Positions 23,801-61,097 of a DNA stretch of 64,000 bases are shown piece after piece; within the stretch, counting starts at the first letter, position 1, and the number at the start of each line of letters is the position of its first letter. The stretch comes from Acidobacteriota bacterium (GTDB lineage: Bacteria; Acidobacteriota; Blastocatellia; Pyrinomonadales; Pyrinomonadaceae): assembly GCA_046725195.1 (NCBI GenBank), contig JBKOYD010000016.1, positions 49,451 to 113,450 of the forward strand, written 5' to 3'. Under the pieces are notes generated by a model. That model worked only from the letters and a program-made list of their open reading frames with translations, did no database searches and was not told the DNA's origin. The position numbers and the translations under genes were made by a program.

Positions 23801-23912
23801 TTGCGCTTTGTACTTTGAGCAAGTTCTTTGTTCTTTGTCCGGCGACTTCTTGTAAGTCGCAAAGCACAAGGTACGAAGCACAAAACACAAAGTACAAGGC
23901 ACAAAGAAAGCA
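23801..23912. repeat. low-complexity palindromic element (CTTTGT / ACAAAG word family)
   Basis: The left arm is rich in ctttgtactttg..ctttgttctttg and the right arm in caaagcacaag..caaagtacaagg. Central hairpin gcgac(9 nt)gtcgc at 23842-23860. Starts 9 nt after the stop codon. Confidence 0.6.
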
Positions 23913-44337: not shown

Positions 44338-44460
44338 CCGTTCAAGAATTGACTGGCTCATGTTTAGACGTTAGAGTCTGGGCTTCGCCTTATCAAGTGA
44401 ACGAAATCTCTTACCGTTAACTTCGATTAACGACTTCAATCAAGAAAGAGGAGCGTCTGA

Positions 44461-44742
44461 ATGCAAGAAGCACTCGGAATGGTCGAAACAAAAGGCTTGG
44501 TCGCAATGATCGAAGCGGCCGACGCGATGGTCAAAGCCGCAAATGTCACGCTGGTTGGTTATGAAAAGATTGGCGCTGGGTTTGTCACGGCTATCGTACG
44601 CGGTGATGTCGCCGCAGTGAAGGCCGCGACTGACGCCGGAGCAGCCGCTGCCCGACGTGTTGGTGAACTCGTTAGCGTCCACGTAATTCCTCGTCCACAC
44701 GGCAGTGTCGACGAAGCTCTTCCTATCGGCGATCGCGGCTAA
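44461..44742 (+). CDS. BMC-H shell protein (single PF00936 domain, PduA/CcmK-like)
   Basis: [27 protein letters not shown]...[26 protein letters not shown] lies 7 nt before the ATG. Confidence 0.9.
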
Positions 44743-44745
44743 AGC

Positions 44746-45015
44746 ATGATCATCGCTCGCATCCTCGGAACCGTTGTCTCCACTCAAAAGGACGAACGGC
44801 TAAGCGGAAAAAAGTTACTCATTGTTCGTCCTATTAATGTCGACGGTACCGATACAACTGGATACGTGGTCGCGGTCGACACGGTCGGCGCCGGTTTTCA
44901 TGAGCGTGTCCTGGTTGTTGCGGGCTCCAGTGCTCGACTGGCTCAGGGAATGAAAGACGTGCCCGTGGATGCCGCGATTGTTGGAGTGATCGATACTGTG
45001 GATGTGAACGAATGA
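44746..45015 (+). CDS. BMC-P pentameric vertex protein (EutN/CcmL family), paralogue 1
   Basis: MIIARILGTVVSTQKDERLSGKKLLIV...AVDTVGAG...DAAIVGVID. Begins 3 nt after BMC-H. Confidence 0.85.
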   Translation: MIIARILGTVVSTQKDERLSGKKLLIVRPINVDGTDTTGYVVAVDTVGAGFHERVLVVAGSSARLAQGMKDVPVDAAIVGVIDTVDVNE

Positions 45016-45196
45016 GCAGAAGCTTGAACTTTGCACTTGGTGCTTTGTACTTTGAACTTCGTCCTTGATCGCAAGACCCTTCAAATCACAAGCATTAAAT
45101 ACAAATCGCGAATACCAAGTACAAAGCACAAAGTTCAAAGTACAAAGCACCAAGCACCAAGCACCAAGCACCAAGCACAAAGCACAAAGCACTAAT
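45016..45196. repeat. 181-nt low-complexity element: perfect 24-bp inverted repeat plus 7-nt tandem array
   Basis: IR arms 45036-45059 cttggtgctttgtactttgaactt and 45131-45154 aagttcaaagtacaaagcaccaag (24/24). (GCACCAA)x4 then (GCACAAA)x2 at 45147-45192, ending 4 nt before ATG 45197. Confidence 0.8.
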
Positions 45197-45469
45197 ATGC
45201 AACTCGCTCGCGTCATCGGGACCGTGGTAGCCACAGTCAAGAACGAATCCCTGCAAGGACGCAAACTACTCGTCGTACAGTCTCTGGATAAGAATCTTCA
45301 GTCGACGGGTAAGCCAATGGTTGCCGTCGACTCGGTTGGGGCCGGACTCGGCGAGTTGGTTTTCTGGTGTCGCGGCAAGGAAGCGAGTTTTCCGTTCAAA
45401 CGAGAGGACACTCCGACCGATTGCACGATTGTTGGCATAGTTGATTCAGATGGCCACGTCACCCGTTAG
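45197..45469 (+). CDS. BMC-P pentameric vertex protein (EutN/CcmL family), paralogue 2
   Basis: MQLARVIGTVVATVKNESLQGRKLLVV...AVDSVGAG...CTIVGIVD. The 44-codon upstream extension in the track (from 45065) only translates the repeat. Confidence 0.8.
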   Translation: MQLARVIGTVVATVKNESLQGRKLLVVQSLDKNLQSTGKPMVAVDSVGAGLGELVFWCRGKEASFPFKREDTPTDCTIVGIVDSDGHVTR

Positions 45470-45480
45470 TCCACTTTAAT

Positions 45481-45765
45481 ATGATCCTCGCCCGCGTTAT
45501 CGGAAATGTAGTTGCAACACAAAAGAACCGTCGCTACGAAAATGCCAGAGTGATGCTCTGCCAACAACTCACTCCTGAGGGCCAGGAAACCAGCTATTCC
45601 GTGTTGGCCCTTGACTCCGTAGACGCTGGCGTTGGCGATACTGTGCTGATCGTGCAGGAAGGCTGGAGCGCCTCGACAGCTGCGACAGGAGAGGCGGGCG
45701 CCGCGATCGATTCAGCGATTGTTGGAGTTGTCGATCGAATTGATCTACTGTCCGATAAACTTTAG
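45481..45765 (+). CDS. BMC-P pentameric vertex protein (EutN/CcmL family), paralogue 3
   Basis: MILARVIGNVVATQKNRRYENARVMLC...ALDSVDAGVGD...SAIVGVVD. Confidence 0.8.
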   Translation: MILARVIGNVVATQKNRRYENARVMLCQQLTPEGQETSYSVLALDSVDAGVGDTVLIVQEGWSASTAATGEAGAAIDSAIVGVVDRIDLLSDKL

Positions 45766-45914
45766 TTTGTCGATCGCGTCGCCAAGAGGGCCTGAACAGT
45801 CAAAGAAGTATTGGCGAGTCAATCGAAAAGGTGAAGCTTATCGGACACTCGGTTGTGAAGCAGCAGCTCGAGGCGTATTGTGTATGTAAACGACAAGACG
45901 GCAGCATATCGAAC

Positions 45915-46334
45915 ATGAGTTTTGAACTTGATCAAGCACGGTTGATGGCCGAAAGAATTGCACGGCGAGTGGCTGCTAGTTCTTCTTCATCTCAGACTCG
46001 AACAAATGGTAACGCCGATATCACGTCAGAATTGTCGGCAATGCGTGCCAGCCTCCGTGAGTTGCAAGACCGACTGCTTCAGATCGAATCTAAAGTGCGT
46101 TCTGGAACTGATGTCTCAAGCTATTCGTCTGACACTTCCCCTAACGGTCCGCGTACGCATTCGCCATGGCTCGCCGGTGTAAACGCTAATCATCCAAGCC
46201 AGGAGCGTTTCGGAGTTGAAGAGGCGACCGTTTCAGAGCTCGTAGATTATTTTCAGAGTGAAAAGACATGCAGCGTCGAACCCGGCGGCAAACCCTGCGA
46301 CCACTGCTCTATGTGTAGTTCGCGTGGGTTCTAG
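45915..46334 (+). CDS. hypothetical BMC-associated protein (139 aa) with N-terminal amphipathic helix, poly-Ser linker and C-terminal Cys motif
   Basis: MSFELDQARLMAERIARRVAASSSSSQ...; C-terminus TCSVEPGGKPCDHCSMCSSRGF (C-x8-C-x2-C-x2-C). The start is uncertain (GTG 45831 in the track). Followed by a terminator. Confidence 0.55.
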   Translation: MSFELDQARLMAERIARRVAASSSSSQTRTNGNADITSELSAMRASLRELQDRLLQIESKVRSGTDVSSYSSDTSPNGPRTHSPWLAGVNANHPSQERFGVEEATVSELVDYFQSEKTCSVEPGGKPCDHCSMCSSRGF

Positions 46335-57083: not shown

Positions 57084-57118
57084 CAGGAGCAGGAGGCAGG
57101 AGCAGGAGCAGGAGGCAG
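57084..57118. repeat. (CAGGAG)n tandem array directly after the mraY stop
   Basis: CAGGAG CAGGAGG CAGGAG CAGGAG CAGGAGG CAG. It contains several Shine-Dalgarno-like AGGAG/AGGAGG motifs. Confidence 0.75.
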
Positions 57119-57250: not shown

Positions 57251-58624
57251 GTGGACCTTAGTGGCAAGAAAGTCTTGATAATTGGGGCGGCACGAAGTGG
57301 AATTGCTGCTTCCAGGTTTCTGATGGCCCGTGGTGCCGTGGTTGCACTGAATGATCAGAAGCCCATCGAGCAATGGCCGGCTGAAGCTCTTGCGCTTAAA
57401 GATTCCGGAGTGGGTTTGCTACCGGGAGAACCGCCAACCTGGTTGCTGGATCAACTTGACCTGGTCGTTGTGAGTCCCGGCGTTCCGGCGAGCATTATTC
57501 CAATCCGTTATGCCGAGCGGGCCGGAGCGGAAATCATCGGTGAAGTCGAACTTGCTTATCGTTATTTGAAAGGACGGATCATTGCTATCACTGGAAGCAA
57601 TGGGAAAACGACCACCACAGCACTCATCGGAGAGTTACTCCGCGATGCCGGCTTACCCGTGCAGGTGGGAGGCAACATTGGCAAGGCGCTGATCTCGATG
57701 GTCGAAAGTTCTCGAGATGATGGTTGGACCATTATTGAGCTGTCAAGTTTCCAGTTGGAAACCATCAAGCAGTTTCATCCGTTGATAGCAGTCGTGCTCA
57801 ACGTTACGCCCAATCACATGGATCGCTACGAAACATTTAACGACTACGCAGCCGCAAAACATCGCATCTTCATGAATCAAACGGAGGCTGATGTGGCGGT
57901 GCTCAACGCGGACGACGCGACAATCTCATCGTGGGAGAACGGGTTGCGAGCGGAGATCATAAATTTCAGTGTTAAGCGACAACTCTCGAAAGGAGTCTTC
58001 TTGCGAGGAACTGACGTGGTCTTTCGCAAGGACGGAGCCGATCAGTTCCTCGTTCGCGTCGATGAAATGAAGTTGCGCGGTCTTCACAACGTAGAGAACG
58101 TTGCAGCGGCATTCGCTGCTGGGCTTGCTGCTGGAGCCAACATTGAATCAATGCGTGAAACGGTGAAACGATTTAGCCCTGTTGAGCACCGGTTGGAGTT
58201 TGTCAGTGAGATAAACGGGGTCAAGTTTTATAACGACTCAAAAGCAACAAGCGTCGATGCAACTTTGAAGGCGCTTGAAGCTTTCGGCCAGGAAAGAGGA
58301 AAGGTGGTTCTAATTCTTGGTGGTAGAGGAAAGAAAGTGCCATATGCTCCGTTGGCACCGCTGGTTCGTGACAAGGTTCGAAAGCTTGTGCTGATCGGCG
58401 AGGACGCAGAAACAATCGCAAAAGAACTGGGTGAATGGGCATCGTTTGAACGAGCCTCCGACATGCAGGAGGCGGTGGCCGTGTCTTTCAAATCGGCGGA
58501 GCAAGGCGACGTTGTGTTACTGGCGCCGGCATGTGCCAGTTTCGATATGTTTGAAAGCTTCGAACACCGAGGGAAGGTATTCAAATCTGAGATCTCAAAT
58601 TTGAGATCTCAGATCTCAGAATAA
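57251..58624 (+). CDS. murD: UDP-N-acetylmuramoylalanine--D-glutamate ligase
   Basis: GAARSGIAA, ITGSNGKTTTTALI. The last 12 codons or so (SEISNLRSQISE) are encoded by a palindromic repeat. Confidence 0.9.
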   Translation: MDLSGKKVLIIGAARSGIAASRFLMARGAVVALNDQKPIEQWPAEALALKDSGVGLLPGEPPTWLLDQLDLVVVSPGVPASIIPIRYAERAGAEIIGEVELAYRYLKGRIIAITGSNGKTTTTALIGELLRDAGLPVQVGGNIGKALISMVESSRDDGWTIIELSSFQLETIKQFHPLIAVVLNVTPNHMDRYETFNDYAAAKHRIFMNQTEADVAVLNADDATISSWENGLRAEIINFSVKRQLSKGVFLRGTDVVFRKDGADQFLVRVDEMKLRGLHNVENVAAAFAAGLAAGANIESMRETVKRFSPVEHRLEFVSEINGVKFYNDSKATSVDATLKALEAFGQERGKVVLILGGRGKKVPYAPLAPLVRDKVRKLVLIGEDAETIAKELGEWASFERASDMQEAVAVSFKSAEQGDVVLLAPACASFDMFESFEHRGKVFKSEISNLRSQISE

Positions 58625-58660
58625 AAGCGGTTTGAGATCTTAAATTTGAGATCTGAGATT
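58586..58660. repeat. GAGATCT-word element: perfect 28-nt palindrome plus a degenerate second copy
   Basis: 58586-58613 tctgagatctcaaatttgagatctcaga equals its own reverse complement. The second unit, tttgagatcttaaatttgagatctgagatt, lies at 58631-58660. Confidence 0.85.
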
Positions 58661-60955: not shown

Positions 60956-61013
60956 GCAGGAGGCGGGATACAGGAGCAGAGGGCAGGAGGCAGGAGCAGG
61001 AGCAGGAGCAGAG
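60956..61013. repeat. (CAGGAG)n-type array directly after the murG stop (same word family as 57084-57118)
   Basis: gcaggagg..caggagcagagggcaggaggcaggagcaggagcaggagcagag. It is followed at 61071-61093 by aagcacaagcacaaagtacgaag (ACAAAG family). Confidence 0.75.
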
Positions 61014-61097
61014 ACACGAGGGCCAGTTTTGTCACGCCGAACATTGCCCCCTCGGCGTTAGAGAAAAGAAAAGCACAAGCACAAAGTACGAAGAGAA

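Follow-up and report, generated by a model that had tools for sequence, protein, structure and literature searches.

The 181-nt spacer between BMC-P1 and BMC-P2, two vertex-protein genes of a BMC shell operon in Pyrinomonadaceae, is a hairpin built from heptamer arrays. It belongs to a genome-wide and family-wide class of such elements and is not an operon-specific device. We consider it likely that the spacer is a non-coding copy of this STRR-like class and that its presence loosens the link between P1 and P2. As such, the hairpin between the shell genes is probably not a purpose-built switch.

The window (i.e. the whole 64,000-nt stretch analyzed here) comes from a Pyrinomonadaceae MAG of 4.54 Mb (182 contigs, 72.5% complete, 82% coding). 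According to Pfam, its shell operon encodes one BMC-domain protein (BMC-H) and three EutN/CcmL-domain proteins (BMC-P1, -P2, and -P3; Table 1), with intergenic distances of 3 nt (BMC-H/BMC-P1), 181 nt (BMC-P1/BMC-P2), and 11 nt (BMC-P2/BMC-P3). The gene order rex-aldolase-H-P1-P2-P3-unknown is conserved among relatives. Downstream of BMC-P3, a 167-aa ORF (45831-46334) matches no Pfam family and has conserved counterparts in 76 of 80 loci; alignments suggest either that its translation really begins 3′ of GTG 45831 or that, in relatives, the ORF and P3 overlap (median spacer -63).

With a class II aldolase, a BMC-H, and a BMC-P triplet in a member of the Pyrinomonadaceae, the operon is an ACI-type BMC locus, an assignment based on the Pfam matches, the taxonomy of the relatives, and the published definition. 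In the ACI entry of the published catalogue, this type consists of a class II aldolase, at least one BMC-H, a BMC-P triplet, and unknown proteins, and is assigned to Acidobacteria subdivision 4 (Sutter et al. 2021, PMC8217296). The entry describes the host operon and not the hairpin element, and the ACI portion of that catalogue mentions neither intercistronic repeats nor the small coiled-coil gene that lies between P1 and P2 in some relatives.

Table 1. Coordinates of the shell genes, the spacer element and its parts, related arrays, and the coiled-coil ORF (positions in the window unless a locus of a relative is named)
Feature	Position	Strand	Description
BMC-H shell hexamer gene	44461-44742	+	Pfam PF00936, E = 7e-31; GAGGAG Shine-Dalgarno upstream
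BMC-P1 vertex pentamer gene	44746-45015	+	Pfam PF03319, E = 1e-30
P1|P2 spacer, entirely a heptamer-array hairpin element	45016-45196	.	181 nt
5′ arm, T-rich words TTGAACT, TTGCACT, TGGTGCT, TTGTACT, TTGAACT	45024-45066	+	TRF period 7 and 21
Perfect 24-bp stem, 5′ half	45036-45059	+	Exact reverse complement of 45131-45154
Loop, unique sequence, A/C-rich	45067-45116	+	0.75 unpaired
3′ array, A-rich AAGCACA-type units, 10.9 copies	45117-45192	+	TRF score 96, 89% matches
Perfect 24-bp stem, 3′ half	45131-45154	+	71 nt separate the two 24-nt arms
Single-stranded tail up to the start codon	45155-45196	+	Composition A20 C15 G5 T2
BMC-P2 vertex pentamer gene	45197-45469	+	Pfam PF03319, profile positions 1-83 from residue 1
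BMC-P3 vertex pentamer gene	45481-45765	+	Pfam PF03319, E = 4e-22
Second hairpin, CTTTGT/ACAAAG word family	23801-23912	.	9 nt after a stop codon
Short CTTTGT/ACAAAG array	61071-61093	+	Ends just before the next start codon
Coiled-coil ORF	L009:1271-1609		Also in L007, L012, L015, L022, L028, L030, L036
Coiled-coil ORF, further carriers	L046, L048, L049, L061, L062, L064		Between P1 and P2

Anatomy of the spacer and the start of BMC-P2

The preliminary description of this DNA had reported the three spacer lengths, a 24-bp inverted repeat, a 71-nt loop, and a heptamer array, and every coordinate holds. Its term for the spacer, low-complexity DNA, is right as far as it goes and too weak as a description, as both arms are heptamer arrays whose variant words mirror each other. 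TRF finds period 7 in the left arm (45024-45059) as it does in the longer 3′ array, which includes (GCACCAA)x4 and (GCACAAA)x2 and ends 4 nt before ATG 45197. The wider arms (45029-45066 and 45124-45161) are 87% complementary, and the word pattern has 15 matches in the window compared with 0.01 expected.

Variant words of the TTCA, TACA, and CACC types occur in mirrored order across the two arms. Since these three variants are mirrored in both arms, the arms were copied from each other as a block; i.e. the element originated by inverted duplication of a word block, probably followed by slippage in the 3′ array. The greater length of the 3′ array indicates either that this array expanded later or that the 5′ arm contracted.

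The spacer folds as RNA at -56.8 kcal/mol, compared with -34.9 +/- 3.7 for shuffled sequences (z = -5.9). The 5′ arm (0.18 unpaired) is paired in the MFE fold, and partition-function folding gives the same picture, with paired arms, an open loop, and a tail (45162-45196) that is 0.68 unpaired. In the operon mRNA we predict a stem of ~24-38 bp, followed by an unpaired A/C-rich tail of ~40 nt that bears the P2 start; in the predicted fold, the last 35-42 nt before P2 are single-stranded. Searches of Rfam return no family at gathering score. Plant and animal miRNA-precursor families match at 22-43 bits, compared with cut-offs of 89-180, and we rejected a miRNA-precursor identity because such subthreshold scores are typical of any long hairpin.

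Orthologues of BMC-P2 align from residue 1 in 80 of 80 loci, with ATG as the first codon in 79 and GTG in 1. Judged from these orthologous sequences, the true start of BMC-P2 is ATG 45197 and, by the same alignments, the 181-nt spacer is shown not to be translated. Because all 80 orthologues align in this way, the 44-codon extension that appears in the ORF track is an artefact, as had been proposed. The alternative, in which the element is translated from TTG 45065 as a 44-residue N-terminal extension of BMC-P2, strikes us as extremely improbable: although its frame is open, and heptamer words of this type hold no stop codon in any frame, the orthologues start at the methionine of MQLARVIG, many of them after spacers of 0-3 nt, the EutN profile begins at residue 1, and the extension is of low complexity and has no Pfam match. 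Such elements yield false N- and C-terminal gene extensions in annotation.

The same data bear on how BMC-P2 is translated. It had been suggested that the element occludes the P2 start, which is unsupported because, among the four shell genes, P2 is the one whose start region is predicted to be most accessible (0.59-0.68 unpaired). Neither GGAG nor GAGG nor AGGA occurs within 20 nt upstream of ATG 45197, in agreement with the earlier statement that a Shine-Dalgarno is missing. That absence is nevertheless ordinary, since a Shine-Dalgarno core precedes only ~33% of the starts predicted for this genome and is missing from P1 and P3 as well.

A genome-wide class and its turnover among relatives

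Period 7 dominates the tandem repeats that TRF detects in the genome, with 618 rows, followed along its multiples by 220 rows for period 14 and 63 for period 21. Neighboring periods have 89 (period 6), 193 (period 8), and 212 rows (period 9), and periods 6, 8, 9, and 10 together span 89-212. Most of the period-7 arrays (495 of 604 non-overlapping ones) are mostly intergenic, and 350 of the 604 have at least 2 tandem reverse-complement units within 200 nt, whereas a control with reversed but not complemented units returns 1. Clustering gives ~408 elements, ~206 of them of the hairpin type, with an architecture that consists of a T-rich word array, a unique loop, and a complementary A-rich array.

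Gene calls come from a crude ORF and codon-score model, which makes the context percentages approximate; with these calls, elements are present in 15% of the co-directional spacers that measure at least 60 nt, and the figures for convergent and divergent spacers are 16.6% and 6.5%. The upstream stop and the element are a median of 13.5 nt apart, and 34 of 128 co-directional hairpins fill their whole spacer, as the P1|P2 element does. Copies within one word family have their words in common, and their loops and termini are unrelated.

The genome contains 136 canonical units. A CAA core on the A-rich strand is present in 71% of these units compared with 19% expected, within the consensus [G/T][G/A][C/A]CAA[A/T]. 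The T-rich arm is 5′ and the A-rich arm 3′ in 125 of 128 hairpins, in every gene context. Because a hairpin reads alike on both strands, this order is intrinsic and is not a polarity with respect to genes. Two explanations of arm order were tried and rejected: transcription polarity (T-rich first in 76 hairpins vs 4), as arm length gives 39 vs 30 (P = 0.34), and terminator avoidance, as convergent and divergent spacers show an equal bias.

In the window itself, the CTTTGT/ACAAAG word family forms a second hairpin and a short array (Table 1), and other word families fill other spacers. For example, murD and ftsW are separated by a GAGATCT-type heptamer hairpin (58586-58660), the first palindrome of which falls within the murD frame, and the C-terminus of murD may be element-extended. 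Arrays of (CAGGAG)n with a period of 6-7 are found directly 3′ of the murG and mraY stops (60956-61013 and 57084-57118). Their words are Shine-Dalgarno-like and tandem, and these arrays are spacer fillers of the same class with another vocabulary.

The best matches to the operon are all Pyrinomonadaceae MAGs (Acidobacteriota, Blastocatellia); the unpublished genomes G040, G043, and G046 enter only the tally of genomes with a match (101/101). Among relatives, the length of the P1|P2 spacer varies between -1 and 585 nt. It is at most 11 nt long, and mostly 1-3 nt, in 25 loci (~1/3 of relatives), which bears out the idea that the window's spacer is extra DNA. Another ~36 loci have P1|P2 spacers of 30-160 nt, most of which are heptamer-array hairpins with words that differ between species. 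Specifically, repeat spacers occupy P1|P2 in 36 of 77 loci (36 of 74 tree species) and P2|P3 in 23-26 of 78 (23 of 74 on the tree), compared with 6 of 75 for H|P1, a junction that is tight in 69 of 75 relatives. In 68 of 70 relatives, a long spacer (median 111 nt) separates the aldolase from BMC-H, and 34 of 70 have heptamer arrays there; the aldolase|BMC-H spacer of the window (44338-44460) has no array and contains a promoter-like site at 44349-44377.

Occupancy of these junctions changes rapidly. A tree of 74 species (median support 0.98) requires at least 20 state changes for P1|P2, 13 for P2|P3, and 1 for H|P1, and even sister species can differ at P1|P2 (e.g. 2 nt vs 87 nt). Hairpins with CTTTGT/ACAAAG words are found at P1|P2 in at least 5 other species, where they measure 62-135 nt and have unrelated loops. 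In this species-level comparison, P1|P2 hairpins with the same words have lengths of 62, 80, 87, 93, 135, and 181 nt, and the earlier proposal that repeat number is labile is correct at this level. Of the 80 related loci, 60 show a period-7 excess. Across the family, the CAA core (28%) and the arm-order bias (19 vs 12) are much weaker, and the vocabularies are thus genome-specific. A metagenome scan for exact matches to the 5′ end of P2 found nothing.

Repeat words also reach into gene ends. In L052 they extend the last BMC-P1 codons, with the gene ending in AGTCAGTAG and followed by TCAGTTGTCAGTAG, and BMC-P1 ends in GTACAAA or ATACAAA in L017, L033, and L025. Gene ends may be the source from which arrays are seeded, or arrays may overwrite gene ends.

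In 14 relatives (12 on the tree), the P1|P2 junction holds a small, conserved and unannotated coiled-coil ORF of 100-168 codons that belongs to no Pfam family. This gene is absent from P1|P2 in the window. The idea that the window's spacer is a remnant of it was set aside: tblastn of the gene against the whole genome, the spacer included, gives only a weak match elsewhere (C137:29380-29589). The encoded protein may be an unrecognized component of ACI microcompartments.

Possible consequences for expression and competing readings

The stop-to-start distance between P1 and P2 is 181 nt, compared with at most 11 nt in ~1/3 of relatives, and re-initiation coupling across the junction would be abolished by the hairpin for this reason. 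BMC-P2 would then have to initiate on its own, from an unstructured leader that lacks a Shine-Dalgarno. With 24 bp, the perfect helix has the length required of a substrate for RNase III or of an obstacle to 3′-exonucleases. The long stem is thus a likely site of RNase III cleavage or of 3′-exonuclease blockage, and the upstream aldolase-H-P1 and downstream P2-P3 segments of the mRNA would gain different stabilities. RNase III was not found with two Pfam models in the 72.5%-complete assembly, and is present in 10 of 12 genomes of the same genus.

Attenuation within the operon had also been proposed. As far as intrinsic termination is concerned, the proposal fails: a scan of 45016-45196 finds no intrinsic terminator on either strand, and the stem is followed by CACCAAG words and not by a U-tract. 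No sigma-70-like promoter was detected inside the element in the scan.

A different route to attenuation is Rho-dependent polarity, in which the untranslated, C-rich and G-poor RNA loads Rho and part of the transcripts end before P2. Some features are suited to it, i.e. the loop and 3′ array have 37 C vs 17 G in 130 nt, the tail is unpaired, Rho is encoded (contig C34), and ribosomes are not expected on the spacer. However, the stem ties up about half of the C-rich stretch, and since in this genome a hairpin read on either strand begins with its T-rich arm, any such effect would be unspecific to the BMC operon; we regard this explanation as quite unlikely. The hairpin might instead be a neutral passenger, i.e. 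slippage-prone junk that has no measurable effect on P2 and P3 and is kept because the junction tolerates it. This is conceivable, if on the unlikely side. The ~200 similar elements in unrelated spacers, the at least 20 flips of the junction, the sisters with 2 nt and 87 nt, the lack of conservation of words and loops, and an arm length without polarity to transcription (39 vs 30) are all in keeping with it, yet 181 nt and a 24-bp stem in a place where relatives have 1-3 nt must remove translational coupling, and the 2.4-fold depletion in divergent spacers implies some selection on position.

At the other end is dedicated dosage control, in which the hairpin is selected at this junction because it reduces or adjusts BMC-P2/P3 relative to BMC-H/P1, with heptamer slippage as a source of heritable tuning. 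Repeat occupancy at P1|P2 (36/77) and P2|P3 (23-26/78) is far above that of H|P1 (6/75) and the ~10% co-directional baseline of the genome, and could reflect selection for the hairpin rather than tolerance, although the related species in these counts are kin and not independent. The architecture moreover recurs with different words, so that structure is kept and sequence is not, and in hmw1A a hairpin links the expression level to the number of heptamer copies (see below). Against it, 26-27 relatives, including most of the window's own clade, do without the spacer, which is therefore dispensable; the P2 start is predicted to be open, a terminator is absent, and the same elements adjoin murD, murC, and many other genes. 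We judge dedicated control unlikely. If the spacer is, as we favor, one copy of a genome-wide class that loosens the P1-P2 link, any effect on vertex-protein dosage would be a side effect of repeats colonizing tolerant junctions and not the work of a dedicated regulator.

Relation to known repeats and significance

Heptamer repeats are over-represented in bacteria, which has been noted since 2007, and their origin and function are largely unexplained; intergenic examples include the cyanobacterial STRR, GGGAATC in Xanthomonas, and GGGGAYT in Nostoc (PMC4692102). TAACTGA heptamer repeats are found in Beggiatoaceae (PMC4679880). The element described here has the defining features of intergenic STRR-like heptameric repeats, i.e. 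a 7-nt unit, hundreds of arrays per genome that are mostly intergenic and often abut start or stop codons, and a length and sequence that vary at the same junction between close relatives. Inverted arrangements have been noted occasionally for the Xanthomonas heptamers, whereas in the present genome more than half of the arrays have an inverted partner around a unique loop. Other contrasts with STRR-type repeats are the spread of the 136 units over many word families in which a loose CAA core is common, the nearly fixed arm order (125/128), and the host, an acidobacterium. The hairpin organization, genome-specific vocabularies, and arm-order bias are differences of degree and arrangement. Our literature search found no report of heptamer hairpins for Pyrinomonadaceae or Blastocatellia.

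In Haemophilus influenzae, an (ATCTTTC)n repeat forms a hairpin in the 5′-UTR of hmw1A that is cut by RNase III, and its copy number tunes expression (PMC12721329). This heptamer hairpin is the closest tested counterpart of the P1|P2 element: in both, a heptamer repeat of variable copy number lies 5′ of a start codon as one arm of a long RNA hairpin, which is a predicted one in our case. By contrast, the hmw1A repeat occurs once, downstream of a promoter, in a contingency locus of a pathogen, and its partner arm is a non-repeat, G-rich region, whereas the element studied here is intercistronic, has arrays as both arms, and is one of ~200 copies.

REP/BIME and REPIN elements of Enterobacteria and Pseudomonas stabilize upstream mRNA segments (e.g. 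malE-malF). REPs are copies of one conserved sequence of 20-40 nt that is tagged with GTAG or CGTC and associated with RAYT transposases. Like the heptamer hairpins, REP, BIME, and REPIN elements are extragenic hairpin repeats that are common 3′ of stop codons and within operons. The P1|P2 element could be thought of as a REPIN- or MITE-like mobile element copied in by a Y1 (HUH) transposase, given this extragenic location, a hairpin architecture that resembles REP doublets, and the ~six Y1_Tnp proteins encoded. We find this very improbable, and REPIN/RAYT and MITE identities were both rejected. Specifically, there is no conserved sequence, terminus, or tag, every loop is unique, and the 136 units are all different; no tie to Y1 transposase genes is seen, the nearest Y1_Tnp gene being 1.2 kb from an element and the others at least 7 kb away, and comparisons of filled with empty sites show no target duplication.

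A more far-reaching possibility, which we put forward tentatively and think unlikely as a whole, is that Pyrinomonadaceae harbor undescribed self-propagating hairpins with heptamer-array arms and vocabularies of each genome's own, which preferentially colonize and re-colonize certain operon junctions like P1|P2 and potentially set the ratio of vertex to facet proteins. Inverted duplication and slippage would generate such hairpins, with an arm order that is almost invariant in this genome, and the hairpins could act as RNA processing or uncoupling modules at operon junctions.

For microcompartment biology, the shell operon of the uncharacterized ACI type is unusually plastic between its three pentamer genes. 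This soil lineage provides hundreds of natural comparisons with and without a hairpin at the same junction, which make it testable how the hairpins arise and whether they shape relative expression within an operon.
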